The notes: generated by a model from the letters alone, not told the origin. 64,000 nt of DNA from an uncultured Acidobacteriaceae bacterium (GCA_963767705.1 CAVYEO010000002.1:1404353-1468352); one strand, 5' to 3'; counted from the first letter of the stretch, positions 29,526 to 54,774 are shown. Numbers and translations are program-made.

Positions 29526-29601
<76 letters not shown>

Positions 29602-29646
29602 TCTAAACCACTGATAATAAGCGCATTAGACGTAAATCAGGAAACC

Positions 29647-30716
29647 TTAGTGGTTGCCTGATTTACGTTTAGTGGCTGTTCTGGTGGCTGTTGGACGAGA
29701 CCGTGGCTGTTCCGTCACCAGGACCTCTACCGCACTTAACTGGTGCTCAGGTGCGAGATGTGCATAACGTGCAGTCATCTGTATCGTCTTATGGCCAGCG
29801 AGTTCCTGAACCTGCTTGAGATGAACCCCAGCCACCACCAACCTGCTGACGAAGGTGTGGCGCAAGGTATGCCAGGTTACGCCTTCGACACCAGACCTTC
29901 TCAGTGCTTTTTCAAACCATGCACGCGGGGTCTGCAGCGGCTCACCATACTTCGACCGGAATACGTGGCCCGAATCGGCTTGAATCCGCTTAAGTGCGGC
30001 CATTGCCGTGCTGTTTAGGGGGACAGCGCGCCGAGAACCATTCTTTGTCATATTCAGCATGATCTGGCATCGTTCTAGGTGGACCTGATCCCACGTGAGT
30101 GAAAACTGCTCACCTAACCTCATTCCAGTGTGCAAGGCAAGATCGAAGGCAGGTTCATGGTATGGGACATGTTTCTGGATAGCGGTGCGGATTGACGCCT
30201 CCTCTGCTTTTGTCAGGAAACGCAGCCGGGCATTGTTTTCATGCCGCATTCGGACCAGCCGAGCAGGATTGCCGGCGACATTGCCGTTCCGGAGTGCCTC
30301 TCGATAAATCATCGAAAGACAAGCTCGGTAGCGGTTGGCTGTCGCTGGTGTCCGGGTTTGTGCGATTAGCCATGCATCGATCTCAGCGGGCTTGATTGAA
30401 TCAGCAGCTCGAGCGCCAAAAGCTGCGATCAGCTTCGGATCTTGATCTCGTCCGCTTTATGGGCCCGCTTGTGTGCCTTTGACCAAAGAAGGGCAGCCTG
30501 CGCAATGCTAGTGAATGAAACCGGCTTCGCCCGCAAATTGTCCGGGAGCTTGATGCCTGCGCGGGCGTCAACTTTCCTCTTCTGGTAGAGAGCGATGGCA
30601 TCGGACTTGCGCCCCACCTTCTCACGCCGCCGTTTGCCGTCGAAATAATAGTGGACCCACCAGATTCCTGATCCGGGCGGTCGTTCGAAGACCCCGCGTG
30701 TGCTGCGTTTTGTCAT
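29647..30716 (-). pseudogene. Tyrosine-type integrase, interrupted by one frameshift near 30,435
   Basis: The N-terminal arm-binding part (MTKRSTRGVFERPPGSGIWWVHYYFDGKRRREKVG) is ORF 30429-30716. A different frame then continues with DQDPKLIAAFGARAADSIKPAEIDAWL...NRYRACLSMIYREAL and the catalytic C-domain (R...HTLRHTFVSRLVVAGVHLKQVQELAGHKTIQMTARYAHL). The total span of 1070 nt is not a multiple of 3. Confidence 0.8.
29672..29711. repeat. Three GTGGCTGTT cores (29672-29680, 29684-29692, 29703-29711) at the left island end
   Basis: Read directly from the sequence. The first two cores are 12 nt apart. They lie in the 3' tail of the integrase ORF (encoding TATRTAT). The reverse complement matches the 63409-63432 repeat. 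Confidence 0.85.
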
Positions 30717-30771
30717 GTGCGCTCCTCCTTCATGTGGACCATACCCGTTGCGGACGAAAACGGCCAGCGTA

Positions 30772-30969
30772 TCAGCAGGCTATCCGTTCCGTCTGATCCG
30801 CCCGGATGAAGCGCGTCAACTCGGTGCGGGGTATCAGGACCTTGGAGCCGATCCTGCGCGTAGCGAGGCGCTTCTGCGCAATGAGGTAATCCAGGCTGCG
30901 CAAAGAAATACTCAAGGTCTTCGCGGCATCCCGCCGCGTGTACAACAGTCGTTCAATGGTTTCTGCCAT
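30772..30969 (-). CDS. Excisionase/AlpA-type HTH DNA-binding protein
   Basis: MAETIERLLYTRRDAAKTLSISLRSLDYLIAQKRLATRRIGSKVLIPRTEL is the typical helix-turn-helix_17/MerR-like excisionase pattern. It lies next to the integrase. Confidence 0.6.
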   Translation of the reverse strand: MAETIERLLYTRRDAAKTLSISLRSLDYLIAQKRLATRRIGSKVLIPRTELTRFIRADQTERIAC

Positions 30970-31304
30970 GACCTGCTCCGTTCTGCATCCCCGTTCATCG
31001 GGGTGCATGAACATCATGGCTTGACAGTGGCGGAAGCACCATCAGGCAAACACCCTAGACGCTGGCTTTATTTGCAAGAAATACAATGTGCATCCTCGCC
31101 CAGGGGATGACTGTCCGCGTCCAGAAGCTGCCGCCAGGCAGGGAGGGCAACGACCATTGTGCCCGGGAGCCCGACCGTAACCTACTGGCGGTCAAATAGC
31201 TCGAACGCGGTCCATTGCGCCATACGAAGCGTGGATGGGAAGGGAGGCACCGAAGTGCCTGCACGCGCCAATCCGGGCGGTGCAGGAAATCGTACATATT
31301 CAAC

Positions 31305-31784
31305 TTGATTGCGACCCTGGAATCCAAGACGGGGCTGCTGGACAAACCCGAGGTCGCCGAATTGCTCGGCGTATCCGTCACGACCGTTTACCGGGTGTCG
31401 AGCCGGAAGCAGTTGCCATCCATCACCCTGGGCGGCAAGAAGAAGTACGATCCCTCCGCCCTCGCCATGATGTTCTGCGGTGCCATCAAGCGCCAATGTG
31501 AGACGCCTGCCCCAGAAACTCACTGCTGGGGCGGTGTAGGTGCAAGAGGGGCGCGGGGTAAGAAGGAGTGGGTAGGGGCGAATGCTAGAAGTGGCGGGGC
31601 GGTGGGCAGAGGGGGCTTGTTCCAGTCCAGATGCCCCGGCTTTCCTGGGGCGAGCGGGTCCAGGAACGGTCTCGAAGAGGGCCAGGTTCAGAAGTATATG
31701 AGTACGCCTCGAGCGCAGTGTAGGTGGAGAACCGACCAATTCCTGTCCTTTTTCATCATGTTGGGGAGGAAAATCCTATACTAG
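31305..31784 (+). CDS. Second AlpA/Xis-type HTH ORF; the 3' part runs into the inverted-repeat arm, so the true extent is doubtful
   Basis: LLDKPEVAELLGVSVTTVYRVSSRKQLPSITLGGKKKYDPSAL is an excisionase-type HTH. There is no ATG, so the candidate TTG at 31305 is used. The reading frame continues without recognisable features across the repeat boundary at about 31,585. Confidence 0.3.
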   Translation: MIATLESKTGLLDKPEVAELLGVSVTTVYRVSSRKQLPSITLGGKKKYDPSALAMMFCGAIKRQCETPAPETHCWGGVGARGARGKKEWVGANARSGGAVGRGGLFQSRCPGFPGASGSRNGLEEGQVQKYMSTPRAQCRWRTDQFLSFFIMLGRKILY

Positions 31785-32207
31785 AGCGGCGATTGCCGGC
31801 CCGTTCTGTGCACTAAGTGCCAGTGCTACGTAGGGAATTCAATGTCCCCTCGTAAACGCGTGCAATCTCCAGAGCAAAACCCCCTGCCACAGATGCGGTT
31901 ACAGAAGTTCCTTCTTTCCGGGGCCGGTTTTTCCATCTCCTGAACGGGCGGGAGATGGGCCTGGAAGAGGACGGAAATGGCTGCCAGGAAAACAGCGTGA
32001 CTGGAGGTGAGTAAGAGCCAGCGGTCAGCCCGGTCCTGGCTGAGGGCAGAGATCGGATTCGGCCAGGAGGGCAGCGCTGAAGTGCGTCAGTCAGCCCGGC
32101 AAACGCAGCAGCCGTATCGAGAAACGCGAGTAACACGCTGGAAGCGAGCAACGGAGAAGAAGGCATGTTGGCGAAGAGTGCAGTGGTCGGCCAAGATGCA
32201 CTTGTGT

Positions 32208-32770
32208 CTAGCGGTCCGGCGCGCGCGCGCGAGGGCTTTGCTGGGCCGCGGTCACGGAGAGACCTGGTCTGAACACGCTGCGCGCCGGCATGGTGAACTC
32301 GTTCGGGCGGATCTTGACGTTGCGAGCAATGGCGATCGCCTGACCTTCGTTGAGGATACCGAAACCGTAGGTCTCTTCCATCGACATGTTGTTGATGTTC
32401 AGGTTGCCGTCTTCCCAGCTCTTGACGTGCGGATCTTCCTGCACGATCAGGGCGCCGAGGTTCTTGCTGTTGAACATCAGGACATCAGTGGTCTTGGTCT
32501 CGGGATCGAAGTTGATGAAGGGGCTGACCAGAATGCGGAACGGGATGCCCAGGTAATTCGGGAGCATCGGCGCGGAGTGCATGTTCTGGTAGTTGCCGGA
32601 CTCAGGCGTCGAAACTTCGCCGCCGGTGAGCTGGCCATTCGTATACTGCCCGAGCTGGCCCTGGCCCATACCGAGGCCACCGTAGTTGTAGAACTGGTTG
32701 CCCAGAGCGGCGGGGCTGCCAGTGAAGTTGGCGAAGAAGGAAGCCGGGTCCGGGCCGGTATAAGTAAATA
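32208..32770 (-). pseudogene. 3' fragment of a larger gene (possibly HK97-fold capsid-like; family not verified)
   Basis: The reading frame is open from a TGA at the junction at about 32,770 (…YTGPDPASFFANFTGSPAALGNQFYNYGGLGMGQGQL…) with no start context. The C-terminal text is DVLMFNSKNLGALIVQEDPHVKSWEDGNLNINNMSMEETYGFGILNEGQAIAIARNVKI. An identical truncation is present in the other arm. Confidence 0.35.
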
Positions 32771-32807
32771 CTCATCACATTTTCGTGCAAGGGGGGCGAT
32801 TTTGGTC

Positions 32808-32836
32808 TTGGGCGGCCGGAAGCTCTCAACTATAAT
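32808..32836 (+). promoter_or_regulatory. Sigma-70-like promoter (TTGGGC - 17 nt - TATAAT) driving the HTH-RHH-recombinase module; probably a leaderless transcript
   Basis: TTGGGC is at 32808-32813 and TATAAT at 32831-32836, with a 17-nt spacer. The ATG of the HTH gene is only 6 nt after the -10 box. A mirror copy lies at 41961-41989. Confidence 0.4.
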
Positions 32837-32842
32837 GAGTAG

Positions 32843-33133
32843 ATGAGTACGTATATCGATATGCCCCATCTGCCCCCTTCGCCTCCCCACTTCCACTTCT
32901 CCCGGCTCCTGGCCTTCTATGTCGAGCGCCGCCGCGGCAATCTCAACCTCACCGCCGAAGCCGCCGCCCGGCTGGCCGGCATGGAGCTGTCCCAGTGGGA
33001 TGCCCTCGAGAGCGGCTGGGTCCCGGAGGACCCGGCCCAGCTCCGCGCCATCGCCGCCGTGCTCGAGAACTCGGAGGAGGATATCGTCTCGATCGCCGTC
33101 ACCACCCGCCACTACCAGGGGCCGCCGGCCTGA
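32843..33133 (+). CDS. XRE/Cro-like HTH protein (copy 1)
   Basis: 96 aa. LLAFYVERRRGNLNLTAEAAARLAGMELSQWDALESG resembles a Cro/C1-type HTH. It is the first gene behind the promoter and is duplicated in the other arm. Confidence 0.55.
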   Translation: MSTYIDMPHLPPSPPHFHFSRLLAFYVERRRGNLNLTAEAAARLAGMELSQWDALESGWVPEDPAQLRAIAAVLENSEEDIVSIAVTTRHYQGPPA

Positions 33134-33246
33134 CCGGCCGGCTGGCCACCTTACTCATATATAGATAAGCTCACCTCTTGAGGAGGTGAGCCATCGTCCC
33201 AGCCAGGAAACGAACTCCGGAACCGGAAGAACCAAGGGTGAAACGC

Positions 33247-33393
33247 ATGAACCTGAACGTCGAAGTCGAGCTCCACAACGCCTTCAAGGTCGCCACTGCC
33301 AGCCAGGGCAAGAACATGACCGATGTCCTGCTTGAGTTCATCGAGCAGTTCGTCCGGGAGAACTACCCCAAGGGCCTGAAGCGGGGACGGTGA
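33247..33393 (+). CDS. Small ribbon-helix-helix (CopG/Arc/ParG-like) protein (copy 1)
   Basis: 48-codon ORF not listed in the track: MNLNVEVELHNAFKVATASQGKNMTDVLLEFIEQFVRENYPKGLKRGR, a beta-strand followed by two helices. Its TGA overlaps the recombinase ATG (TGATG). Confidence 0.5.
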   Translation: MNLNVEVELHNAFKVATASQGKNMTDVLLEFIEQFVRENYPKGLKRGR

Positions 33394-33989
33394 TGAAGCG
33401 CGCCGTGCTTTACCTCAGGGTCTCGACCGTAGACCAGCATCCCGAGACCCAGATGTACGACCTCCGCCAGATGGCTTCGCAGCGCGGCTTCGAGATCGTG
33501 CGCGAGTACTCCGACACCATCTCGGGGGCGAAGGCGAAGCGGCCCGGGCTCGACCAGCTCATGGCCGACGCCCGCAAGCACCGCTTCGAAGTGGTCCTGG
33601 TCTGGGCCTTCGACCGGATGGCCCGCTCGGTTCGGCACTTCCTTGAGATCCTGGACGAACTCAACCACCTGTCGATCGAGTTCGTCAGCTTCCGCGAGAA
33701 CATCGACACCGGCGGGCCGCTCGGCCGGGCCATGGTGGTCATCGTCGGCGCCATCGCCGAGCTTGAACGCAGCCTGATCGTCGAACGGGTCCGGGCCGGC
33801 ATGCGCCGGGCTCGGCTCGAAGGCCGCCACATCGGACGCAAGCCGGTCGACATCGACCGCGGTCGTGTGCTCCGGGACCGGGCCTCCGGCATGAGCCTGA
33901 GTGAGTTGGCCAAGCTCCACCGCGTCTCCCGGGCCACCATCCACCGGGTCCTGCGCGACCAGAACCCTCCAGTTCCCAAACTGGCCTGA
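33393..33989 (+). CDS. Small serine recombinase (resolvase/invertase family), copy 1
   Basis: AVLYLRVSTVDQ (catalytic Ser context), GAKAKRPGLDQLM, FEVVLVWAFDRMARS, GGPLGRAMVVIVGAIAELERSLIVERV and a C-terminal HTH (MSLSELAKLHRVSRATIHRVL). Confidence 0.9.
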   Translation: MKRAVLYLRVSTVDQHPETQMYDLRQMASQRGFEIVREYSDTISGAKAKRPGLDQLMADARKHRFEVVLVWAFDRMARSVRHFLEILDELNHLSIEFVSFRENIDTGGPLGRAMVVIVGAIAELERSLIVERVRAGMRRARLEGRHIGRKPVDIDRGRVLRDRASGMSLSELAKLHRVSRATIHRVLRDQNPPVPKLA

Positions 33990-34040
33990 CCCCTGTTTCA
34001 AAAGGGCTGCCAAAAGCTGGCCCCTAACTCCCCCGAAATC

Positions 34041-34068
34041 AACAGCCGGATCTCACCATCCGGCTGTT
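34041..34068. repeat. 28-bp perfect palindrome AACAGCCGGAT-CTCACC-ATCCGGCTGTT (candidate recombinase site or terminator), copy 1
   Basis: Read directly: 11-nt half-sites with a 6-nt centre, 52 nt after the recombinase stop and 23 nt before the end of arm identity. The mirror copy is at 40729-40756. Confidence 0.45.
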
Positions 34069-34468
34069 CCTAAAGGTGTGGGTTCGGATCCACAACAGAA
34101 TTACCAGGGTCACAGCCCATTACATGAGTGCTGGCAAGGTGATTTCCACCACAATTTGCGTACCCTTCGCCGTTGTAGGTACATAGCCATAGTCACTGGG
34201 ATCGTACTGAGTGCAATCTTGCGCCCCTAGTCGTTTGAAGATGGATTTAGAGAGATTTCGCACAAACGCAGCCGCTTTTAGACTGTACTCGGGAAGGGTC
34301 CAGGTAAAGACCGGTCGCATGTTTCCTAGTGCGTCCTTATATTTGGATCGACCGTAACCTTATTCGAAAGCTACGCAGGAAGGTCAATCATGTATGCCAA
34401 GAGCAAGTGCCGGGAGATGCGTCGGATGAGTTCCTCTCGCAAGTCGCGGCCGAACTTATGCAGGTCAT

Positions 34469-35710
34469 TCACACGGTGGACACGTCCGTGCTGGGCGCAC
34501 CTGTGGCCCAACCCCAACGATCTTTATGAATGTCCGCGGCGAGCGAGGCCATGTTCTGACGAAATTTCCCGGCCCGAAATCCACAACTTCCCGAGGTGCA
34601 TGAGATGCCTCTCCCCACGCCAGCATCTTTCGGCAGCAGAGCCCAAGAAAGCAGGTAGGGATCATCCATCAGGTGCAGCCGAAAAGCCTGTTCACCGGAT
34701 GGCCTGTTTGTTCTCTAGAGGCTAACATCAACCTCGCATTTTCTACCGCATTAGCTGCCAAGATAAAGCCGCCCCCGGAACCGAAATGTCTGATGAGCAG
34801 GAGTATCGAGCTTTTGATAAACCCTGGCCTCAATTTCACTGGCAGCACCCGTGACCGAGTCAAAATGAACGTAGCTGGCAACGGCTTGGATACCAAATCT
34901 GCGCCTCCCGTAAAATGGCTTGGACGAGTGTCTTACGCGCGTCGTAGCGAGCCTGCACCGGACACAGCGGTACGCAATTGGTGTTGCCCTGGCAGCGTTT
35001 CTCCGGATTCGTCCTGATGGAAGCTGATTGCGCCTCCTGGTCGATACGGCTTGTTCCCGTCCCATTCGTTCCATTTCGCATAGTAGGGTTAGGATCAGCA
35101 TTCTTGGCCTGCGGAAACGTACTCAAGCTCACCGGCAATTCCGCTCCATCGATGCGCATGAACATCCCCGCCATGCCTTCGCCCAAAATGTGCCTGGATA
35201 GCTGGCTTTCAGCTGATCACCGGATAAACGTACTCTTCGTCGAACTCCATACCCATTTTCTTGTGTGAAGAGACGTTCCAGAGACACCGAGCTCATATTC
35301 TGCACCACGATAGTAAGGCTTCAAGGTGTCGAGAGTGATGGCCAATCCAGACCTTGGCCGAAGTTGCTGCGCATTTGGAAGTCTTCACGCAACATGCGAG
35401 GAGTTTTTGCTTCCCAATGCACTGTCGTGTCACCAAGCACCTTGCTGTAAACGCTGTCCGAGATAAAGGGACCGTTCTGCACGATGCAGGCGCCGGTATA
35501 CGGTCGTGGACTGATTGGCCCAGTATGATTGTCTGGCGATCGCGGCCTCTCAGCATTCGGATTTCGCAGGATGGTGAGTTGTTGTCCTTGACCGGTGCGG
35601 AATAAGAAATTCCTCAGATAATGCTGGAAACCATTTTGAGAACAGTCGCGATCAGGCCCGGCTTCCAATACCAAGACTCGGTATCCAGCCAAAGCAAATT
35701 CCTTCGTCAT
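34469..35710 (-). pseudogene. GMC-family oxidoreductase, 5'-truncated and multiply frameshifted (3' boundary uncertain)
   Basis: Fragments lie in different frames: FALAGYRVLVLEAGP...TTVHWEAKTPRMLREDFQMRSNFGQGLDWP (35321-35710), CQGNTNCVPLCPVQARYDA (34860-35186) and ILAANAVENARLML (34669-34896). The dinucleotide-binding N-terminus is missing where the IS fragment abuts at 35710/35711. Confidence 0.65.
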
Positions 35711-36197
35711 TCGAGGAAGATCACAGGGACGGGCGCAAGCGCAAGGTAGTAGGTCATCGGAATGCTGGAACGGTGCGGCAAGGTCAAGGCAACCGTTGTA
35801 CCGGACAGGTCAAAGGAGACACTGCAAGGCAACATAGTCAAGAATATCGCGGCCAGCGCGGACGTCTTCACCGACGACCTACTAGCCTACTGCGGCCTTC
35901 ACGAGAGCATACAAACATCAGGTCATCAACCCATGCTGAAGAATATGTCCGTGGGCAAGGTTCACACAAACGGGATGGAGAATTTCTGGAGCCTACTGAA
36001 GCGCGGCCTGACTGGGACGTACATCAAAGCCGAACCCTTCCACCTCTTCCGCTACATCGACGAACAGGCTCCCCGCTACAACAGCCGTAAAGGGATGAGG
36101 GATGAAGGATGCAGACCGCTTCGATCTCTCCATCGAGCAAGCGGTTGGTCGGCGGCTCACTTACAAGGAACTGACGGGCAAAACGGAGGTAGAATAA
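35711..36197 (+). pseudogene. IS1595-family transposase, C-terminal half, with at least 3 frameshifts
   Basis: Read across frames: RKRKVV / GMLERCGKVKATVVPDRSKETLQ...VFTDD / HAEEYVRG / KVHTNGMENFWSLLKRGLTGTY...FRYIDE / DADRFDLSIEQAVGRRLTYKELTG, with the stop at 36195-36197. This is the DDE_Tnp_IS1595 pattern. Confidence 0.7.
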
Positions 36198-36759
36198 CAA
36201 TCGCCACCCAAGAGGTAGTAGCTCAAGGGTGGCAAAATCTAAGTGCAAAGAAGATAACAATGTCAAAAAATATTAAACTTAATGACACACTTACAAGGCT
36301 GACGGGCTATATGAAAGTGGCGATACTGGCTCTCAGACTGGCAACAGGCTTGAAAGCTTTATTCATCTGAGTTCCGTACTCCCTTTCCAGCATCCCTCTA
36401 GCGGCCATTCACGCCGTTAGGGGGATTTCTTTTGTAGTAGCGCTTGCCCTTCTTTGCCTTCTTTGCTGCCGCCAATCGTCTGTCCAACTCCTCTTTGGGT
36501 ACGGACATGATCTTGTCCCTAGCCTTGTCGAACGTCTCGAACTCCTCAGACGGTTCTGAGGCTGCGCTCACGGTCGGTCGGACTAAGGTTTTCATGTAGC
36601 ACACACTAGACTATGACATGGATTATTTTACGCTGTCGGGCGATAAGGGCCGCGTAGAGGGGCTGTCTAGCCGACTTGGCTGACCTCCAAAGCCGCCAAG
36701 ATTTCTGATATTCATGTTCAGAAGCCGTAAAACCTCCCACAGACGAGGTAGACCGCGCA

Positions 36760-37581
36760 TTGGCGGATAGCGAAGCACAGCAGGAACAGCGTGCCTTCCA
36801 CAACGAAGGAGGCACGATCATTTTTGATAAACCCTCGAGTGACGAAAAGACAGCCGAGAAGCGACGCCAAGACGAGGAACACGAGTACGCTAGAGATCAA
36901 GTCAAGTCGAACAGGCTCATTGCTTATTTCAACGGTTTGCTTGTGATTGCCACGTTCACTGGTATCGTCATAGGAATTTGGCAGGCGTACATCTCTCGTG
37001 CAGCAGTTAACACCGCGCGTGCGTCCATCATTCAAGCGCAGCAGGCACTTCAGACCACCATCGACAACTTCCACCAAGAACAGCGTGCCTGGATCGGTAT
37101 TGCAGCTACCAATCCCCTCAGCTATAGCACCGACCCAAGTACCCGCTCCGCGAGTATGACTGTTGCGTTCACGCTTGAAAACTACGGGCACTCTGCTGCC
37201 GAGCACGTGCATTTTCTCGCGGTACTGGAATCCGACCCGACAGTTAACAGCATTCCGTGCAGTGATGCCGCTAAACTCCACGGCGGCGACATCTTGCTTC
37301 CAACCCAAACACGTACGCTGAATTGGGTAATGACTTTGAAGCGCGACCAGATGGAAAAGGGATGGAATCATCAGAATCCCCAGTTGGGGAATACGCTTCT
37401 CTTGAAGATCTTGGGCTGTATTGAGTATTCCGACCGAGAAGGGGAGAAGCCTCCACACTTCACCCCTTTTAGTTATTTGGTTTACCGGAAAGACGCTTAC
37501 ATCTCCGCCCAAACTAGAAATGTTCCCGGCAGGCAACTGGGCCTTAGTCTGTACGGTGTGGATTCCAGCGAAACTCGCTAA
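36760..37581 (+). CDS. Hypothetical single-pass membrane protein (cargo of the bracketed segment)
   Basis: 273-aa ORF in a lower-GC region. It has a charged N-terminus, one TM helix (LIAYFNGLLVIATFTGIVIGIW), then a soluble domain. No family recognised. Confidence 0.4.
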   Translation: MADSEAQQEQRAFHNEGGTIIFDKPSSDEKTAEKRRQDEEHEYARDQVKSNRLIAYFNGLLVIATFTGIVIGIWQAYISRAAVNTARASIIQAQQALQTTIDNFHQEQRAWIGIAATNPLSYSTDPSTRSASMTVAFTLENYGHSAAEHVHFLAVLESDPTVNSIPCSDAAKLHGGDILLPTQTRTLNWVMTLKRDQMEKGWNHQNPQLGNTLLLKILGCIEYSDREGEKPPHFTPFSYLVYRKDAYISAQTRNVPGRQLGLSLYGVDSSETR

Positions 37582-37828
37582 GCAAGCGGCCACAACCCAC
37601 TTGGATCGGAATAATTCTCTAAACAGCTATCTATTACTTTAGCGCGGAAAGCAAGGCAGCGGTTCAGGTCAGGCGGGACTTAGGGGGTGCGGGGCTTAGC
37701 AGAGCAATGACTTTGCTGAGTCATGTATGTCATTGCCGTTGCGTGGGTTGGTACGAGCAAAGATGAAGCCCAATGACGCCGCTCACGATTCGTTCAGATA
37801 GAGCGGCGTCACTGTGAATCTTCGGGCA

Positions 37829-38888
37829 TTAGGGTATGTTGACGCACGCCAGAGCAATCGCTCCCTGGCCGCAAGCGCCTCCTCCATGCACTTGACTGAT
37901 CGAGTTATGGATTCTGTTCCCGCAGGTTTGAGCTACGACTGTGCCGAAGCCCCTTCCCCAGTCCGCGCCCGTACCGAAGCAGCCGTTTCCTTCCAAGTCA
38001 TAGGCGTGCACTTCCACACTAATACCGTTTATTCGGTTTTGCAGGGTGTCTGCCACTTGTTTCTGAGCGGCCGTCGCAGCCTGAGCCTTATTGAGATCGG
38101 AAACGGCCTGTGCCACTGCCTGGCTAGCCTGCGAAGCAAGTTCAAATCCGTTCAAGGTATCTGACGGGAAAACGATCGCTAGAGAGCTTACCGCCCCAGC
38201 AGCAACTGTGAGAGTCGTCCGTTGGTAAAACGTTGACCCATCCTGTTTCTTCTGGGGTTTCTTTACACAGGTGATAGCAAAAGGGTTTGCGGTGCTCAGG
38301 TGCACCGGCCCGCTGTAGGTTACAGGCCTGTGAGCGCTGTTGAAGTCGGCGCTTTTGCACGTCATTGCAGAGTCGTCATAAACGACGCTGTTGATGAAGT
38401 CCTTATAAGCACCGTCTGCCGACCCGCTGACGACTAGAGTATCTGGCTGGCTGATTGCGACCCGCAGATGCAGACCCGAGCGAGCCAGATCAACGCAGCT
38501 ATTGAAGTTGGCGAGAGCTCCCGTAACCACGGTGGATGAGGCGTTGCTGGCCGCATTCCATGAATCGAACTGGCTCGAACCCACCTTGCAGAACTCTTCC
38601 ATTTTCTGCTCGCTGGTGCCGTTGCTGAACGAAAACTTGAAAGGAATCGCCTTTACGACTGCTTCTAGCCCCACACCCGTCGCAGATGTGTTCACCGACC
38701 CATCTTTCTTACAGAAGGATGAGAACGACCGTACGAGCTCCACGTTGGTCTGTTGAGCCTCAGAGTAATCTCTAGTTGAATTCTTATAGATGTCAACGCA
38801 CGCCTGCAGGGCGGCGTCAGTCTGCAAGGCACGTGACTGGGCGAAGACTGATAGCCAAGGTTAACGACAGAATCAAAGAAAACTTCAT
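37829..38888 (-). pseudogene. Hypothetical exported protein; the signal peptide is out of frame by 1 nt relative to the 332-aa body
   Basis: ATG 38888 opens MKFSLILSLTLAIS... and then hits a stop. The main ORF (37829-38827) read upstream in its own frame gives ...SVFAQSRALQTDAAL. Joined together these give a textbook signal peptide, MKFSLILSLTLAISVFAQS. Confidence 0.45.
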
Positions 38889-39521
38889 GGAGGTAGCTCC
38901 TTGTTGGTATTGCCAGGTTGGGGACCCAAGAAAAGCTGCTTGACACACTTGATGCTGGTCGCTGTGCGAGGAATTGTACTCTCAGCTTTTGCGCTCTTCA
39001 AAGTTAATCTAGCTAAACCCCGGCCCCCTCACCAGCTTCGTCATCCGTGGTTGGTCGCTGTGGCAGTGGTTGTACCGACTCGTCGACATTGGCTAGAACA
39101 AATCACCCAACGATCAGATTGGTCCTAGAAGTCCGCTTTTCGTCCGCAATCAGACTCGGCAACGCGAAAGTTCACAAGTTTCAGTAACAGCCTCGAAACT
39201 CGACTCCTACCATGCGCAGAACCGTCCAACTAAGGCCGGCGGTTGGATGAGGGGCCGGGAAAGTTCAAGCGGGTTCTCCCGGCGGCGCTTTTGGGCAAAC
39301 CCCAGAGCGACAGGCCTGCCGCCACGCGCCGCACAAGGCTAATCAGCCTGGTGTGCTTGGTTTCTTTCTAGGCTTTGGACTTGGCAGCGAACTCCTGCTT
39401 GGCTGTGTTATCAGAACTAGCCCTCATCAACCCGAGTCTTCTTAGGCCAACAACATACGTGACAAATCCGACGTATAGCGGGATACCTGAAGCATGGAAC
39501 AGGCACCCAAGACGCTTCAGA

Positions 39522-39905
39522 AAGCAGTGCTCTACTTCAACCAATGCAGATAACTGCCGCAACTACCTAGTGGCACGGCGCTGGCCTGAAGGCGTGATTC
39601 GCCCTCGCTGTGGAAGCGATAAGGTGGCGTTCCTTCCCAAGTACAACCCATGGCAGTGCAGCACGAAGCATGACGCCCGCCAGTTCACGGCGAAGACCGG
39701 CACGATCATGGAAGAGACGCCTATCGGCTTAAACAAGTGGCTAATGGCGATGTGGCTGATTGTGAACTGCAAGAACCGCATCAGTTCGTATGAGACTCAC
39801 CACGCTATCGGAGTAACACAGGAGACCGCATGGTTCCTCAATCACCGCATTCAGCTGGCGCTCACGTCCGGCAGCTTCGACCGAAGCCGATCTCAGCCGA
39901 CCTAG
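39522..39905 (+). pseudogene. IS1595-family transposase, N-terminal half (zinc-ribbon plus HTH)
   Basis: CRNYLVARRWPEGVIRPRCGSDKVAFLPKYNPWQCSTKHDARQFTAKTGTIMEETPIGLNKWLMAMWLIVNCKNRISSYETHHAIGVTQETAWFLNHRI is the characteristic IS1595 N-terminus. It ends about where the 35711 fragment begins. Confidence 0.7.
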
Positions 39906-40728
39906 CCGCAAGATGCGATAGACGCGATCAGGCCGAAAGAATGGAGACCCTGTTCCGTGCCGGTGCTTGCCGTGCCGCGATCCGCCGTCATCAAAGACAT
40001 TGAGAAGAGAAAGCGGCGTCGCGCGAAGAAGCAGGAATAGCTGAATGGGACTGCGGGTGCTGCACCCGCAGCAATGCTTGTTCCGACCGTCCACACTGTA
40101 TCCGCAAAAGCGACACCGAATGAATCAGTAGTCATATCAGCCTCCATGTTTTCCGTCTTTGGCCTTTTTAGCATCGTAAGCAGCACCACAAACATGATCC
40201 ACAGACAGCCGAGCCAAGCATCCGAGAAGTCGGACCTTCCGAACCCGGAAGACTCAGACTACCACAGGCCGTTCAGCCGCTTTTTATGTTGATTTGCCAA
40301 GTATGTTGTTGCCCTTCTTAGCCGAAGGGGATTTTAGGTTCCTGCGACTATCCACGAGTGATAAATCGCCAATGCGCTCATGGAGCTTCGTTCAAGCAAA
40401 CTCCGCGTTGCTCCCGAGTGACGGTCAAGCCGGAAGTTGAGTTCGCGGGCGGCAAGTCGCGACGCGCTGATCGGGAACGAGCCCCGCATCAGTCTCCATG
40501 AACGCGCGTGCCTGTACCTAGCAGCACCACAGCCGGTTGTTTCCGAACCCACACTCCTGGGAACATTCAAACCTATACATGATAGGTGCGGGAAGTCTCT
40601 GCTCCATCGGTTCATCAACACGACTTTGACCATCGCGGCATTGGCGTTTAAAGCTGCCGCTGCAGCGGTCAACCAACTGAAACAAATGCCCGCTCTCTCC
40701 TAAGGGGATCAGAACCCACACCTTTAGG

Positions 40729-40756
40729 AACAGCCGGATGGTGAGATCCGGCTGTT
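40729..40756. repeat. 28-bp perfect palindrome, copy 2
   Basis: aacagccggatggtgagatccggctgtt read directly. It is the mirror of 34041-34068. Confidence 0.45.
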
Positions 40757-40807
40757 GATTTCGGGGGAGTTAGGGGCCAGCTTTTGGCAGCCCTTTTGAA
40801 ACAGGGG

Positions 40808-41404
40808 TCAGGCCAGTTTGGGAACTGGAGGGTTCTGGTCGCGCAGGACCCGGTGGATGGTGGCCCGGGAGACGCGGTGGAGCTTGGCCAACTCACTCAG
40901 GCTCATGCCGGAGGCCCGGTCCCGGAGCACACGACCGCGGTCGATGTCGACCGGCTTGCGTCCGATGTGGCGGCCTTCGAGCCGAGCCCGGCGCATGCCG
41001 GCCCGGACCCGTTCGACGATCAGGCTGCGTTCAAGCTCGGCGATGGCGCCGACGATGACCACCATGGCCCGGCCGAGCGGCCCGCCGGTGTCGATGTTCT
41101 CGCGGAAGCTGACGAACTCGATCGACAGGTGGTTGAGTTCGTCCAGGATCTCAAGGAAGTGCCGAACCGAGCGGGCCATCCGGTCGAAGGCCCAGACCAG
41201 GACCACTTCGAAGCGGTGCTTGCGGGCGTCGGCCATGAGCTGGTCGAGCCCGGGCCGCTTCGCCTTCGCCCCCGAGATGGTGTCGGAGTACTCGCGCACG
41301 ATCTCGAAGCCGCGCTGCGAAGCCATCTGGCGGAGGTCGTACATCTGGGTCTCGGGATGCTGGTCTACGGTCGAGACCCTGAGGTAAAGCACGGCGCGCT
41401 TCAT
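40808..41404 (-). CDS. Small serine recombinase (resolvase/invertase family), copy 2
   Basis: Its 199-aa translation is identical to copy 1. Confidence 0.9.
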   Translation of the reverse strand: MKRAVLYLRVSTVDQHPETQMYDLRQMASQRGFEIVREYSDTISGAKAKRPGLDQLMADARKHRFEVVLVWAFDRMARSVRHFLEILDELNHLSIEFVSFRENIDTGGPLGRAMVVIVGAIAELERSLIVERVRAGMRRARLEGRHIGRKPVDIDRGRVLRDRASGMSLSELAKLHRVSRATIHRVLRDQNPPVPKLA

Positions 41405-41550
41405 CACCGCGCCCGCTTCAGGCCCTTGGGGTAGTTCTCCCGGACGAACTGCTCGATGAACTCAAGCAGGACATCGGTCATGTTCTTGCCCTGGCTGGCA
41501 GTGGCGACCTTGAAGGCGTTGTGGAGCTCGACTTCGACGTTCAGGTTCAT
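41404..41550 (-). CDS. Small RHH protein, copy 2
   Basis: Mirror of 33247-33393. The C-terminus is KRAR instead of KRGR. Confidence 0.5.
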   Translation of the reverse strand: MNLNVEVELHNAFKVATASQGKNMTDVLLEFIEQFVRENYPKGLKRAR

Positions 41551-41663
41551 GCGTTTCACCCTTGGTTCTTCCGGTTCCGGGGTTCGTTTCCTGGCTGGGA
41601 CGATGGCTCACCTCCTCAAGAGGTGAGCTTATCTATATATGAGTAAGGTGGCCAGCCGGCCGG

Positions 41664-41954
41664 TCAGGCCGGCGGCCCCTGGTAGTGGCGGGTGGTGACG
41701 GCGATCGAGACGATGTCCTCCTCCGAGTTCTCGAGCACGGCGGCGATGGCGCGGAGCTGGGCCGGGTCCTCCGGGACCCAGCCGCTCTCGAGGGCATCCC
41801 ACTGGGACAGCTCCATGCCGGCCAGCCGGGCGGCGGCTTCGGCGGTGAGGTTGAGATTGCCGCGGCGGCGCTCGACATAGAAGGCCAGGAGCCGGGAGAA
41901 GTGGAAGTGGGGAGGCGAGGGGGGCAGATGGGGCATATCGATATGTGTACTCAT
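41664..41954 (-). CDS. XRE/Cro-like HTH protein, copy 2
   Basis: 96 aa, with one residue difference from copy 1. Confidence 0.55.
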   Translation of the reverse strand: MSTHIDMPHLPPSPPHFHFSRLLAFYVERRRGNLNLTAEAAARLAGMELSQWDALESGWVPEDPAQLRAIAAVLENSEEDIVSIAVTTRHYQGPPA

Positions 41955-42026
41955 CTACTCATTATAGTTGAGAGCTTCCGGCCGCCCAAGACCAAAATCG
42001 CCCCCCTTGCACAAAAACGTGATGAG

Positions 42027-42706
42027 TATTTACTTATACCGGCCCGGACCCGGCTTCCTTCTTCGCCAACTTCACTGGCAGCCCCGCCGCTCTGGGCAAC
42101 CAGTTCTACAACTACGGTGGCCTCGGTATGGGCCAGGGCCAGCTCGGGCAGTATACGAATGGCCAGCTCACCGGCGGCGAAGTTTCAACGCCTGAGTCCG
42201 GCAACTACCAGAACATGCACTCCGCGCCGATGCTCCCGAATTACCTGGGCATCCCGTTCCGCATTCTGGTCAGCCCCTTCATCAACTTCGATCCCGAGAC
42301 CAAGACCACTGATGTCCTGATGTTCAACAGCAAGAACCTCGGCGCCCTGATCGTGCAGGAAGATCCGCACGTCAAGAGCTGGGAAGACGGCAACCTGAAC
42401 ATCAACAACATGTCGATGGAAGAGACCTACGGTTTCGGTATCCTCAACCAAGGTCAGGCGATCGCCATTGCTCGCAACGTCAAGATCCGCCCGAACGAAT
42501 TCACCATGCCGGCGCGCAGCGTGTTCAGACCAGGTCTCTCCGTGACCGCGGCCCAGCAAAGCCCTCGCGCGGCGCGCCGGACCGCTAGACACAAGTGCAT
42601 CTTGCCCGACCACTGCACTCTTCAGCCAACAGGCCTTCTTCTCCGTTGCTCGCTTCCAGCGTGTTACTCGCGTTTCTCGATACGGCTGCTGCGTTTGCCG
42701 GGCTGA
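42027..42706 (+). pseudogene. Second copy of the 5'-truncated (capsid-like?) gene fragment, with a different C-terminal tail caused by a 1-nt indel
   Basis: Mirror of 32208-32770. After ...AAQQSPRA the frame differs from copy 1 (the CG-repeat run is 1 nt shorter), extending the ORF to 42706. Confidence 0.35.
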
Positions 42707-43351
42707 CTGACGCACTTCAGCGCTGCCCTCCTGGCCGAATCCGATCTCTGCCCTCAGCCAGGACCGGGCTGACCGCTGGCTCTTACTCACCTCCAGTCAC
42801 GCTGTTTTCCTGGCAGCCATTTCCGTCCTCTTCCAGGCCCATCTCCCGCCCGTTCAGGAGATGGAAAAACCGGCCCCGGAAAGGAGGAACTTCTGTAACT
42901 GCATCTGTGGCACGGGGTTTTGCTCTGGAGATTGCACGCGTTTACGAGGGGACATTGATTTCCCTACGTAGCACTGGCACTTAGTGCACAGAACGGGCTG
43001 GAAATCGCCGCTCTAGTATAGGATCTTCCCCCCCAACACGATGAAAAAGGACAGGAATTGATCGGTTCTCCATCTACACTGCGCTCGAGCCGTACTCATA
43101 TACTTCTGAACCTGGCCCTCTTCGAGACCGTTCCTGGACCCGCTCGCCCCAGGGAAGCCGGGGCATCTGGACTGGAACAAGCCCCCTCCGCCCACCGCCC
43201 CGCCCCACTAGACAAAGCTCTAATCGAGTGGCTTTAAAGCCGCAACAATCGGCAACATGGATTGAGACGTGTGGAATCGAGAGTTCGGCCTCGGATGCAG
43301 ATTCGGGCAGGTCGTTCCTAGCTTCGCTCTAATAGAGCAAGGCCCAGGAGG

Positions 43352-46300
43352 TCAGAACAGGTTATAGCAACTCTCGACCACGCACTGGCCGAGACGCCGA
43401 TAGCTTTCAAACTGGCTTTCCGTAAAGAACTGATTGAGGGTCTTGTCGTGAGGAAATTGCGCATGCTGTAACCAATAGTTCTGAATATCGCCGGGAAGAT
43501 TCGGCAGATCGCCGGGATTCGACCCGCTCCCTGGCGCGCCTGGCGGCGCGCCGACAAGGGATGCTTTAATGTAGGTGATGCGACCGCAACAGCCATCAGG
43601 CGTTTCCGGGTACTTGATAGTTCCCTGGATAGCGTGCGCCGAGCTGAAGCGCGTTTTCGCAACCAATCGCAGTTCGGAAAGGTTCAGGTTGATCTCGACC
43701 CCGAAATCGATCCGGCACTTGCGAATGGCCATGCCGATGCCTTCAAAGAGATAGGTCTCGTCCTGCTCGGCGTCGCAGACGACGACGTTGTAACAGCGCC
43801 GGCGAATCAATTCGTATAGACCCATGTTGTCGAAGTGTCCGCCGTCGGTGAGATAAACATATTTATAACTGTCGTCTGTGCTTCCGATGAGCTCCGAGAA
43901 GAGCGCCAGACCCGTGGGCGAGCCCAAACCGCCTTTCCCGCTTGGCGCATCGCCGAGTTTCCGTCCGGCGCAGGACAGCTTGCGCGGGTTGGGTAGCCAG
44001 CAGCCGAGGCGAGCGTTGAACATGGTCAGCAGGAAGGCCGTTGCCGGTTTCGTGTGGTAGCCCCAGTTGGGACTGAGGGCGGCACCGGAGATTGCCATAG
44101 CCGTTGAGATATTCAGACCCCCTTCGGGGGCAGCATAGAGCTCGGTAGGCACGAAGCCGTTGAACTGCGTGCCCGGCTCGCCCTCCGTCCAGCTTGCCGT
44201 GTATCCCGTATAGAGCGGGGTGAAGGCGAAGGAGGCGCCTTTGCGCTCCTGATAGGCGAGGTCCTTGCCCGTAGTCAGGTTCAGGGTGGCGCAGAAGATG
44301 GGGAAGGGGCCGGGATAGTCCTGATCCGGGAGTAAGGCACCGCAGTTGGAGTCCGCGCGTGTCGCGGTCGTCGAAGCCAGTCAGTGGATTAGGGTCACGG
44401 CTGCGGTTCGAAGCGCCAAGATAGCAGCGCGTCAGCCGGTTGCGGTAGAAGGGGAACATGGAGAAGGCGTTCGCGTTGAGCCGCCAACCGAAGGTCAGCG
44501 ATGCCAAAAACGAAACCAGAAGCCCGCTGCCGAGCCGCCATGGGTGGGAGCCGCTGCCGAGCCAGAGCTCGATCGTCCAGGAGAGCAGCACGAGCAGGCC
44601 GAGGATGTAGACGTAAGGGCCGACGGTGGCAAGCAGCTCGGCAGACAGGGCGGTCTTGGTCTTTGGAGCATCGGCTGCCGCTCCATCGGTCTTGGCGCTT
44701 TTACCGCTGGCAACGGAGGCGGCGGTTGTCGCGGCCCAGGCCAGCACGGTCGACCACTTTAAGGCGGAGCTGTAGATGACACTGGTTAAGAAATCAGGCG
44801 AGAGCAGGGCGATCGAAAAAAGGCCGAGCCATGCCAGCGCGATGAGGAGGGTGCTGGCCTGCAGCCGTCCGAGCAACTCGCGTATCCAGTCGTCAAACTG
44901 CCGCCCTACCGCGCCGACGAGGAGCCCGACCGTTAAAAACGGTATGGACGCGAGCAGGGGAACGCCGAAGATCAACTCTATGCCGGGAACCGGGCAGTGC
45001 ATCCAGCGGGCTCCCCAGTGCTCCAGGGTGGCGACACGGATAAGCACGGCAAGGAGGGCAAAGACCGCCGCTCCCCCAAGGGAGACCAGCGAACACAGAG
45101 CAGAAAAACCCAACCGGGCCCAAAGTCCATACCGCGGTAGAGCCCTGCCGCCGAGAGCCACACCCATGCTCAAAAGGAATAGTGCTCCAGCAACGCCGGC
45201 GTATTGCCATGCTGATGGATCGGCGCTGACAAAAGCGTAGCTCAGTGGAATGGCGGGAAACATGAGCAGGGCAAGGATGAAGCTGGTATCCCAAGGATGA
45301 CTTGATTTGCGCCGCGTCTTCCTCTCACAGTCGAGAACATCTGCCAGCGGACCAGGGCAAGGTGGGATGGTGCCGGGCGCAGTGGACGCTCGGACGGCCT
45401 GGTCGCATGCCCGGATATAGGAGTGCTCATCACTCAAGAGAAGAGCCAGATAAAAAGCGCCAACCAGAAAGAGGATCAGCCCGGAAACTATCCAGAACAG
45501 CGATTTCTGGTTCTTCTGTAGGACTCTTGCATTGCACGGCGCCTGCTGAGGCTGGCTTAGCGCGTTGCATAAATTGAGCCGGGGACATCCGCTCAGATCC
45601 AAACGTTTCCCGGCCCAGGATGCCACGGAATATCGCAGAGTGCAGCCATAGTGGTGTGAGAAGGTTTCCGCTGCGATGCCAGAGGCTGCGCCCTTCGCGA
45701 GTCCCGAAATGGCGAATGTGTACTGGCCTTGGACACCGGGGCCCGTGGCGGCGAAATGACCGGCGATGCTGGCCGGCTGCGTGGTCTCCCGTTTGGTGCA
45801 GGCGCTCCCGGGGTCGGCCCATGGCACAGAGAAGAGCCAGGGAATGAGCAGCATGAAGAGGAGCGCGGAGATGAGCACGATCTGGTTCAACAGCGTGTTT
45901 CTTATCCAGATGGCGATAGCGGTCCAGGTATCGAGAGTGAAGAGGCCCTTTTCCGGCGTTAGGTAATTTGAGTAGCTGCGCAGCCAGCGTATCTCGAAAG
46001 GGGCGCGTTGCGGCGGAAGGGAACGTTGGATGGAGGCGTCGTATTTCGGATCATCTTCTGGACTTTTCCGATTGGGAATGCAATTCGTCGAGGCCGGGAT
46101 GGGCGACATGGCGGCTTGCACCTCCTTCAACGCTTCCTTGCACGCAAAGCAAGAGTTGCGTCCCAACCTTTGTCGCGCTGTTTCGCGTTTCAGCCAGGCG
46201 ACCAGCCAGGCGTGGATGTAGCCTCCGCCGGAAACGGAAGACAGATAATCGTAGTCGTTCAGCTTCTGCTTAGAAGCGAGACCTTGCAGAACGCCGAGAT

Positions 46301-46733
46301 TGAAAGTGGCACTTCGGATGCCGCCGCCGGACAGGCATAGGCCGGAGAGCTTTTCCAGCCGAGCCCAGTCGTATACCGTCGCGGGTCGCTTTGGGTCAGT
46401 TAAATCCGGTGGCCACGGTTTGCAGTCTCCTCCATGGACGGCACGCACTTTGCATAATGTCGGAGCTTCCTGCTCCAGCAGCCATTTACTCGGCACATAG
46501 TCGACAAGATTAGCAAGCGGCTGCTGAAGCCCCGGGTTGCTGCGCATGCAATCTAAAATGTCCTTCTCCGCACAAGGGGCCAGCGATGGCAGCGTCGTTT
46601 GCTGAATCGCCCAATCACGTACCGTCCTGAGCTCCGGGACAGCAATCAAGAGCTCCGTGCTGATTGGCTTCCCGATGTCTTTCGCGTAAGCAAGAACACG
46701 TTGCGATAGTTCCTCGAGATAGTCACTTCCCAT
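43352..46733 (-). pseudogene. Patatin-like phospholipase with a large polytopic membrane insertion; one frameshift between about 44,300 and 44,380
   Basis: CLSGGGIRSATFNLGVLQGL (oxyanion GGGxR) and SSVSGGGY (nucleophile elbow) lie in the 988-aa ORF, followed by at least 9 hydrophobic helices. After ...NPLTGFDDRDTRGLQL the homologous path continues in the frame of ORF 43352-44152 (CGALLPDQDYPGPFPIFCATLNLTTGKDLAYQERKGASFAF...LTDGGHFDNMGLYELIRR, the catalytic Asp motif). The start is placed at ATG 46733 (AGGAGA 8 nt upstream). Confidence 0.75.
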
Positions 46734-46806
46734 TGGTTGTTCTCCTGGCATGGGTTTGTCGTATCTGACCCTGGCAGTACCGTTTGTTCCTGCCCCGCGT
46801 CCTGCG

Positions 46807-49800: not shown

Positions 49801-50189
49801 CGCACGGGGCATGAGGACAGAGCCAGAACCGGAGGCGAGCACGGCTGTCCTTGGGGCGACGGAAATAAGCATAACGCCTTGTTGCCAAGTGGAATTTCGC
49901 ATAGCCAGTGGTCAAGGTGACACACGGCTACTGGTACGCTGGCAGCTAACTTGGTCGAAGGCGGCTGGAGCGAGGCGCCGTTCGCGTTGCGGCTTGCGCT
50001 CCCGGTCACCTTCTTGTTTGCCGCTGGTGCAGTGCCGCTCCTAGGTTTTTTGTTTGGCGCCGGAGTAGCTGGGCTAGTGGTTGCAAGACCCGAGTAACCG
50101 AGCATGGCAGAACACAGCGAGCACGCAAGGATTCCACCGATTAAGGAACCAAGAAGAGAGCGCACGGATCTGCACAGGAGCAGCGCCAT
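46807..50189 (-). pseudogene. Large exported, possibly lipidated, secretin-like protein; two ORFs (403 and 724 aa) separated by a 1-nt frameshift in a Ser/Gly-rich linker
   Basis: There is an N-terminal signal peptide with a possible lipobox (GGILAC). The 724-aa frame is open upstream to 49110 and reads SSSENSSAKKTGAGKGSGADGQSSAQVQASTSAAGDLIVFAEG, continuing the low-complexity text of the 403-aa ORF. A C5 run at 49090-49094 sits at the switch point. The C-terminal blocks LNLSVTPRSTVGASGAEMDVRLTAAES, THVRVDSIVLF, VELPYIGTLAGIPL and AIVSAIAVPTA resemble the secretin C-domain. The family call is tentative. Confidence 0.45.
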
Positions 50190-54600: not shown

Positions 54601-54774
54601 TAATGACTGCCATGCTTCCGGTTGCGACTCCTGCACCCACGCAATCACATCCTCAGGGAACAAAGCCCGCACCCGGTCGTACTGGGCGGAAACAGCCTCC
54701 TCATATACCCAGCCATGCTGCCCGAGGTACTCGGCAATCTCGACCTCGAAGTGAATCTCTTTGTGCAGGCTCAT
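51630..54774 (-). pseudogene. hsdR: Type I restriction enzyme R subunit (HsdR), disrupted by about eight frame changes
   Basis: The homologous path jumps between ORFs:
- 53506-54774 (nuclease and motif I, QHSAGSGKTNSIAW)
- 52977-53528 (IADEAHSSQTG, the DEAH box)
- 52625-53035 (NGHAKAMVVVGSR...QILLVANKFQTGFDQP)
- 51715-52710 (AGIQAVQTLSRLNR...)
- 52347-52595
- back to the 51715 frame
- then alternating with 51630-52082 (C-terminal helical domain). Confidence 0.85.

Follow-up and report, generated by a model that had tools for sequence, protein, structure and literature searches.

Introduction

Several described systems combine a serine recombinase with inverted DNA. In the C-segment of phage P1, 0.6-kb inverted repeats surround a serine-invertase segment, the crossover sites are located at the outer repeat ends, and the repeats flip. 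The Inc18 plasmid pSM19035 carries its recombinase within very long inverted repeats. According to the title of Canosa 1998 (cited in PMC2441792), the beta recombinase of this system inverts DNA between inversely oriented six sites. Both six and the Sin-like res consist of a crossover dyad, a spacer and a head-to-tail accessory repeat (PMC2428073). In the Din family (Hin/hix, Gin/gix, Cin/cix and Pin/pix) a single invertase gene beside or inside the segment is accompanied by short repeats confined to the sites, and a Fis-bound recombinational enhancer acts in cis. The published hix, gix, cix and pix sites have a 12-2-12 layout (PMC3241671). In this paper we looked at a 64,000-nucleotide stretch of DNA from an uncultured Acidobacteriaceae bacterium (GCA_963767705.1, CAVYEO010000002.1:1404353-1468352; hereafter the window, in which all positions are counted from the first letter). 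Here two inverted repeats of 2.5 kb, called arms below, each carry a complete module with a small serine recombinase gene and bracket a centre of 6.6 kb.

We consider it probable, with real room for doubt, that this structure represents the "twin" form of a recombinase module widespread among Acidobacteriota, with a Gin-like serine recombinase and a putatively invertible or exchangeable centre. The two module copies face each other, and the centre is located between two complete inverted sites. Such a twin bracket is a recurring and apparently undescribed kind of gene bracket, and full-text literature searches gave no description of the layout.

Inverted arms and the recombinase module

The left arm (31593..34091, + strand) and the right arm (40706..43204, - strand) were delimited by repeat search and pairwise alignment. 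An initial annotation, made from the sequence alone, had placed them at 31585-34091 and 40705-43210; its inner left end is retained here and the other ends are shifted, and its mapping of one arm onto the other (x -> 74797-x) is correct. The alignment of the arms covers 2498 nt and has 29 substitutions and a compensating pair of 1-nt indels (~32173 and 32225), which bears out the few differences that had been reported. The substitutions are unevenly placed. Fifteen of the 29 fall within the outer 580 nt, and between 33388 and 34085 the arms do not differ at all, where 8.1 differences would be expected under a uniform rate (P ~3e-4). Since this stretch spans the recombinase gene, the open reading frames (ORFs) of the two recombinases are identical, as had also been noticed from the sequence.

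The recombinase is a small serine recombinase of 199 aa (33390..33989, +; identical copy at 40808-41407, -; Pfam Resolvase, E 6e-44), with the Resolvase domain at residues 5-146 followed by a C-terminal helix-turn-helix (HTH) at residues 155-190. It matches the PHROG "DNA invertase" family (E 1e-53). Its best solved relative is Mu Gin (4m6f; E 2e-26), to which it is ~40% identical over 180 residues, and its YLRVST motif aligns with the Y-V-R-V-S-T of Gin. The gamma-delta resolvase (E 5e-21) and the Tn3 resolvase were also matched, both behind Gin, and no Sin chain was found among the PDB sequence matches at E <= 1e-5. A look-up for the exact protein gave no record. Because the recombinase reaches no NCBIfam equivalog, its plasmid relatives in PLSDB are all <60% identical and IMG/VR holds one relative that is distant (42%), its family is, judged by sequence, a distinct branch of small serine recombinases and not a known plasmid or phage module. 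On the same PLSDB and IMG/VR results, a specific plasmid-module origin and a phage association were each rejected.

Upstream of the recombinase gene, and overlapping its start by 4 nt, is the gene of a ParG-like ribbon-helix-helix (RHH) protein of 51 aa (33238..33393, +; right copy at 41404-41559, -; Pfam ParG, E 3e-7), which also gives a weak Omega_Repress match and is conserved among relatives. It had been described as an RHH protein of 48 aa; the class stands, and the length is 48 aa when counted from the first ATG and 51 aa from a GTG. Preceding it is the gene of an XRE-type HTH protein of 96 aa (32843..33133, +; right copy at 41664-41954, -; Pfam HTH_31, E 5.9e-6), which corresponds to the Cro-like HTH seen in each arm by the initial annotation and is kept upstream of the recombinase in relatives. 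Divergent from this operon is a small ORF of 153 aa (32208..32669, -), called as an ORF and supported by homologues at the same position in relatives; its right-arm copy (42128-42706) is longer owing to indels. Family searches with it gave no match. Close homologues were found at the same position in three loci (L003, L004 and L012), and a related cluster of 143 aa in 16 loci. What had been taken for a truncated gene fragment is rather a diverged member of a small gene that is placed here in relatives, and it is not clearly truncated. The promoter proposed for each arm was not recovered, as a sigma-70-type match was not found in the arm; nor were extra half-sites found in its promoter regions.

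The site at the inner arm ends

Each arm ends on its inner side with a site of ~100 bp in total, located downstream of the recombinase gene, in which a head-to-tail repeat is followed by a GC palindrome and then by a dyad of 26 bp. In the module family the site is placed about 5-100 bp past the recombinase stop codon. The left dyad (34066..34091, +), recognized by the family consensus and a window scan, is of the crossover type with a 12-2-12 layout, GTTCCTAAAGGT-GT-GGGTTCGGATCC. The right dyad (40706..40731, -), found by alignment and the window scan, is inverted and has the same GT core. The last base of each dyad is also the last (inner) base of its arm. The two dyads differ at one variable position (G/T at 34086/40711). 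The 64-kb window holds only two matches to the dyad, and shuffled sequences hold none.

A global MAFFT alignment of 84 tails downstream of recombinase genes was uninformative, and iterated nhmmer models with anchoring on TGGGTT were used instead. These models locate the site at 73 arm ends (genome loci and window); with metagenome loci added there are 105-108 unique site sequences in total, and the site is kept in more than 100 related loci of Acidobacteriota. The family consensus of the dyad, TGTnTCAAAAGGT-GT-GGGTTnnGAnACA, is based on 65 unique sites anchored on TGGGTT. The outer positions of its halves are symmetric (TGTnTCAAAA / TGTnTCnnAA), conservation ends at the last base of the dyad and the sequence is random from +14.

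The GC-rich palindrome, AACAGCCGGATC-TCAC-CATCCGGCTGTT (34041..34068, +; mirror copy at 40729-40756), can form a hairpin. A perfect stem of at least 7 bp is present in 72% of the 105 unique sites vs 0.4% of shuffles, and the stem is maintained through at least 18 different sequences, that is, by covariation. The initial annotation had suggested these 28-bp palindromes as test sites for the recombinase. Based on the family comparison they are not crossover sites; they are a covarying hairpin between the dyad and an accessory-like repeat. This repeat, CTGTTTCAAAAGGG / CTGCCAAAAGCTGG (33993..34020, +; mirror copy at 40777-40804), repeats the left half-site motif head to tail and is located ~75 nt before the dyad. 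It is conserved in both site classes and also, at the same distance from the dyad, in a partner site that has no gene (see below). Motifs in an order like that of Sin/beta sites are conserved, with one group at 33993-34020, a palindrome-bearing spacer and the dyad at 34066-34091.

Mimicry of a tRNA T-arm by the dyad end (GGGTTC..GATCC) was considered and dropped, since locus L010 lacks the site and ARAGORN finds no tRNA there. In L010 a fragment resembling a tRNA 3' end, GGGTTCGATCCCCACCGCCCCTACCA, is seen at ~10695-10727, ~50 nt past the recombinase stop; with L016 and L019 this locus forms a sub-lineage without the conserved site. Another variation is an ORF of ~88 aa whose product begins with a hydrophobic helix; it is placed after the recombinase gene and before the site, at about +600 to +860 counted from the start of the recombinase. 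It is present in L015, L017, L020, L061, L062, L071, L077 and L078, where it shifts the site ~250 nt downstream, and the window is without it.

Recurrence in Acidobacteriota

Relatives were collected by a scan of one genome per species and from JGI metagenome contigs. The genome scan gave 78 loci with recombinases 67-82% identical to that of the window, almost all of them in metagenome-assembled genomes (MAGs) of Acidobacteriota, and many of these loci retain the HTH-RHH-recombinase order. Soil and peat metagenomes contain at least 501 confirmed relatives of the recombinase. No relative above ~80-82% amino-acid identity was found in the genome or metagenome collections, so the single-copy ancestor of the arm that was to be sought was not found in them either. 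The module is multicopy in some genomes (at least 4 contigs of one MAG), and tyrosine integrases adjoin it in 18 of 79 loci. A Tn3-type transposase was found neither in the arms and centre nor in the flanks of relatives, where a kinase / beta-propeller protein is the sole large neighbour that recurs.

Two convergent copies, 1.8-17 kb apart, are present in at least 20 of ~70 distinct places; their arms measure 0.9-3.1 kb and are 81-100% identical. The JGI contigs added one further twin (L106) and a single-gene locus with an inverted partner site (L113). Two contigs from short-read metagenomes (L122 and L158) break off precisely where a second site, in inverted orientation, is reached, which indicates that twin arms systematically break such assemblies and that the layout is probably under-counted.

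Both recombinase copies of the twins are intact and under purifying selection (dN/dS 0-0.19, dS up to 0.87), apart from four twins in which one copy is decaying. In some twins, L076, L035 and M3 among them, each of the two copies has a closer match in another genome than in its partner. The near-identity of the arms had been read as a sign of recent origin or of ongoing gene conversion. Recent origin by itself does not account for the family, since the twin layout is also found with arms that have diverged to dS 0.3-0.9 and both genes intact. Gene conversion is backed by an identity gradient. In the window and in M2, M4, M5, M7, M8, L013 and L076, identity is highest beside the site and declines outward, and in L013 and L076 near-identity is limited to the first 250 nt from the site. 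A different form was seen in L042 (8555-12560), where inverted repeats of 1469 nt, 100% identical, contain the small gene, HTH and RHH only, and a single recombinase gene with its site is located between them; this is probably a deletion derivative of a twin.

The single-gene, short-repeat form is represented by L113 and L011. In L113 one recombinase gene is accompanied by an inverted partner site without a gene, 7.7 kb away and 76% identical. In the partner the accessory repeat is present, the hairpin has another stem sequence, and the inner half-site of 15 nt is identical. That all three elements of the site are retained despite this divergence argues for selection on the inverted partner. 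The partner in L011 is 40 nt long, and L073 has a decayed second arm. In M8 (L062 15599-15664, and at the same place in L078) one hairpin inside the cargo is flanked by dyads that point outward. On sequence grounds, this double site potentially splits the cargo into two independent invertible segments, as in multiple-inversion systems. The window has two sites, and a multiple-inversion system (shufflon) has more than two. A second site in direct orientation was not found in any locus examined.

Cargo and its probable turnover

Between loci, the window included, homology downstream of the recombinase invariably ends at one position, the dyad. When arm ends of different contigs were paired and the pairs with at least 88% identity across their final 800 nt were taken, only 2 of 58 pairs had homology past the dyad, and both come from one shared element (L001/L012, where the cargo is colinear). 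M5 and L066 have a common left flank and common arms but unrelated cargo. The comparison shows that the site, as far as sequence can tell, is the point that joins the module to ever-different DNA, and therefore the centre behaves as replaceable cargo. In relatives this cargo includes Cas1/Cas7, AbiEii, DO-GTPases (double-GTPases), N6_Mtase and GmrSD_N with an AAA ATPase, and also giant Ig-repeat surface proteins, MFS transporters and metabolic enzymes. The outer arm ends are idiosyncratic, with no terminal motif and no target duplication found among the loci.

Just inside the dyad, 85-190 nt are common to several cargos that are otherwise different. L003 (10691-10876), L001 and L012 have them on the left, and L004 (19791-19977) and L005 on the right. 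This shared cargo-end sequence may have been left by an inversion, or the site may extend into it.

In the window the cargo, or putative invertible segment, has 6614 bp (34092..40705) and is of low GC, with decayed genes and orphan ORFs. Its G+C is 0.535 vs 0.619 in the arms and is the lowest of any 6.6-kb stretch in the window. The lower GC of the centre had been noted initially, and the counts given for it (27 G+C in 36901-36960 and 42 in 8401-8460) are exact. The cargo of the window is foreign in composition, lower in GC and largely decayed. At 34751-35710 (-) it contains fragments of a GMC-type dehydrogenase, which match the large subunits of FAD-glucose and fructose dehydrogenases in the PDB (E 3e-7); the shattered GMC oxidoreductase of the initial annotation is in this way supported by structures, and Pfam gave no match. 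The two halves of an IS1595 transposase that it had listed were both found by family match, the DDE half at 35762-36370 (+) and the Zn-ribbon half at 39375-39905 (+). Both halves are encoded on one strand, but their order is permuted, with the DDE half 3 kb upstream of the Zn-ribbon half, and ~40 residues between them are missing; a circular permutation, or two direct copies that are each truncated, would account for this better than the split of one copy by a simple insertion. In L004 a truncated N-terminal part of an IS1595 transposase begins 65 nt after the site. Two orphan ORFs (36760-37581, +, and 37829-38827, -) gave no family match, so their description as membrane or exported proteins was not confirmed. 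PADLOC, PHROGs and NCBIfam gave no match for the cargo orphans or for the large flanking ORFs.

Genomic context of the window

The left arm side is adjoined by a group of genes at 29526..31017, consisting of a tRNA-Met (29526-29601), a tyrosine integrase split into two ORFs of 221 aa and 95 aa (29647-30716, -), and therefore probably inactivated, and an HTH_17 excisionase-like gene (30772-31017, -). With these genes ~2 kb away, the structure is located at the integrase end of a tRNA-linked genomic island. The far end of the island was sought by means of the tRNA 3' end, and a second copy was not found in the window.

To the right of the structure, a patatin-like phospholipase gene adjoins the right arm (43352-46829, -) and is apparently frameshifted, its ORFs 43863-46829 and 43352-44152 overlapping in different frames. 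It is followed by two large ORFs without family match (46807-48981 and 48978-50189) and, at 53506-58857 (-), by a type I restriction-modification cluster of hsdM, a YhcG/DUF1016 nuclease gene, hsdS and hsdR. The hsdR ORF has only 422 aa (HSDR_N and part of the helicase) and is probably truncated. A DUF4062/AAA NTPase at 59437-62106 follows the cluster. The island to the right of the bracket looks like a defence island.

Comparison with known systems

The structure is like the Din family in several respects. The enzyme, a small serine recombinase, has a C-terminal HTH and is closest to Gin among solved relatives, and two inverted 12-2-12 sites bound a segment of a few kb, here at the level of sequence only. 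The half-sites are of the type GGnTT..GA.A / T.TC.AAA(A), similar to the published sites (PMC3241671), and the non-palindromic 2-bp core is identical in both sites. Unlike in the Din family, the crossover-type site comes after the recombinase gene, with an accessory-like repeat and a hairpin ahead of it. The inverted repeat also runs 2.5 kb outward with the whole recombinase operon in two copies, instead of one invertase gene with short repeats at its sites. HTH and RHH genes are, judging by their arrangement, co-transcribed with the recombinase gene. No gene fusion or promoter would be switched, and the cargo is arbitrary accessory DNA and not tail-fibre or flagellin genes.

The beta/six system and Sin-like res resemble the window in the order of sequence motifs, with a crossover-type dyad, a spacer (in those systems for a bending protein) and an accessory-like head-to-tail repeat, and beta/six also has an RHH protein of the omega / ParG class nearby, which the weak Omega_Repress match recalls. 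The differences are that the module here is chromosomal and island-borne, that its best plasmid relatives are <60% identical, that Sin is absent from its PDB sequence matches at E <= 1e-5, that the site is 3' of the gene, that the spacer is a covarying GC hairpin and that second sites are all inverted. In the Tn3 family a DDE transposase and 38-bp terminal repeats accompany tnpR, and a three-subsite res is located upstream of tnpR; the module differs from this family (tnpR/res) in having no Tn3-type DDE transposase. The P1 C-segment is similar in its kb-scale inverted repeats with a serine-invertase segment, and differs since here the sites are at the inner ends, the repeats would stay in place and the repeats contain the invertase gene. 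Engineered recombinase-mediated cassette exchange is alike in that the cargo is located between two inverted sites of one recombinase, and the same arms with unrelated cargo and breaks exactly at the sites are its expected trace. We know of no natural cassette-exchange system of this kind. By its sequence, the layout would work like an inversion system of the Din or beta type, and fails some features of each, namely the position of the site, the duplicated gene and the long outward repeats.

Proposed mechanism and alternatives

The initial annotation had argued from geometry that the centre could be inverted by homologous recombination or by the recombinases themselves. This argument holds and is much strengthened by the inverted dyads at the exact inner ends of the arms. 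As these arm ends are conserved inverted dyads, recombinase-driven inversion of 34092-40705 becomes a concrete prediction: the recombinase would pair the two dyads, cut at the GT core and flip the segment. RecA could flip the same segment through the 2.5-kb arms. The arms themselves are best accounted for by an outward inverted duplication that began at the site. One candidate route is the repair of a recombinase-made break with the flank of the partner site as template, and a second is template switching between short inverted sites. A double-strand break made by the recombinase and repaired with the flank of the partner would explain why the inner end is fixed, why the outer end varies and why identity falls off outward. 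Gene conversion tracts that start at the site may keep the arms alike, and the cargo may be renewed by recombination at the sites.

Several points weigh against this reading. With symmetric arms, inversion has no obvious phenotype, and selection for inversion is left unexplained; because a flip leaves the junctions unchanged within 2.5 kb, a promoter or gene-fusion (phase) switch is unlikely in this form. The accessory elements of Tn3, gamma-delta and Sin restrict recombination to direct repeats, and the site here has accessory-like elements. To our knowledge, neither an enhancer nor a host factor has been described from this phylum. The site is downstream of the gene, unlike in known invertase and resolvase systems. 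The same cargo in both orientations was not found among the relatives compared. The cargo end of 186 nt that L003 and L004 share is at the left site in the former and at the right site in the latter, which is ambiguous as the right arm of L004 is cut by the locus limit. The zero differences across the recombinase gene could partly be the result of purifying selection and not of conversion.

The main rival explanation, which we regard as rather unlikely, is that the enzyme is of the resolvase type and acts on direct repeats only. Directly oriented duplicates would be resolved away and inverted ones would persist as inert survivors, inverted only rarely by RecA. The order of head-to-tail repeat, spacer and dyad fits this explanation, as it is that of Sin-like res (PMC2428073), and so do the matches to the gamma-delta and Tn3 resolvases. 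It also predicts the lack of directly oriented second sites that is seen in all loci. Yet an inert site would not be maintained, and L113, a single case, keeps its gene-less inverted partner despite ~24% divergence. The back-to-back double site of M8 is the layout of a multiple-inversion system, and the best solved relative of the recombinase is an invertase. Going by the title of Canosa 1998 (cited in PMC2441792), beta recombinase, with its Sin-like site, inverts DNA between inversely oriented sites.

Another option, doubtful in our view, is cassette exchange, in which cargo would be swapped between two brackets on different replicons by two site-specific crossovers that leave no repeats; the bracket would then be a hot spot where accessory and defence genes are gathered and traded. 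It is compatible with inversion and does not exclude it. For such exchange speak the breaks of homology, which coincide exactly with the dyad in 56 of 58 pairs of closely related arms, the orthologous loci with different cargo, the diversity of the cargo and its richness in defence genes, the arms that are closer to those of other genomes than to their partner (for example in L076, L035 and M3), and the foreign composition of the cargo in the window. However, no donor and recipient with the same cargo in two brackets were found, except for the L001/L012 element. Ordinary insertion, deletion or inversion at secondary sites could also renew the DNA that adjoins the site, and exchange requires two co-resident brackets.

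It is very improbable that the structure is a composite transposon or the product of two independent insertions in opposite directions, with the arms as mobile units and the centre as trapped host DNA. The module is multicopy in some genomes and its inner boundary is sharp, as such an origin would have it, but the arms are without a transposase and range from 0.9 to 3.1 kb, the outer ends vary by locus with no terminal motif or target duplication, and the sharp end is the inner one, the opposite of what a composite transposon would have. The composite element proposed initially is disfavoured on these grounds. Its companion proposal, the scar of a plasmid multimer-resolution module, is not supported, as the best plasmid relatives are <60% identical and the site is downstream, not upstream, of the gene. 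Near-identical inverted repeats of kb scale are a known failure mode of long-read assembly, but a fold-back or chimeric contig is excluded for practical purposes by the 29 substitutions and 2 indels between the arms (31 differences in a non-random pattern), by the conserved site at which the repeat stops at both inner ends, and by the same layout in at least 20 independent assemblies, long- and short-read, including arms only 81-90% identical.

Implications

The preferred reading, a twin bracket with an invertible or exchangeable centre, has some consequences for the biology of these bacteria. A practical one is a warning that kb-scale inverted repeats of this type break short-read assemblies exactly at the site, as in L122 and L158. 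Should cassette exchange take place, which we hold only tentatively, it would be a hitherto unrecognised way in which Acidobacteriota, a phylum dominant in soils, renew their gene cargo, with accessory and defence blocks swapped between replicons or islands without transposases or repeats. In that case break-induced repair at the sites would both create the arms and keep them alike. The bracket would also explain why cargo in defence-bearing islands of Acidobacteria has sharp boundaries. The module can be seen as a serine-invertase system of unusual design, with a downstream site, a hairpin in the site, HTH and RHH partners and the enzyme gene duplicated within the repeats. Its defined site of ~100 bp and its enzyme of 199 aa are a possible recombinase/site pair for a phylum with almost no genetic tools. 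If our reading is true, the structure in the window would be an instance of a common and conserved genome device in soil Acidobacteria, and not a one-off rearrangement.

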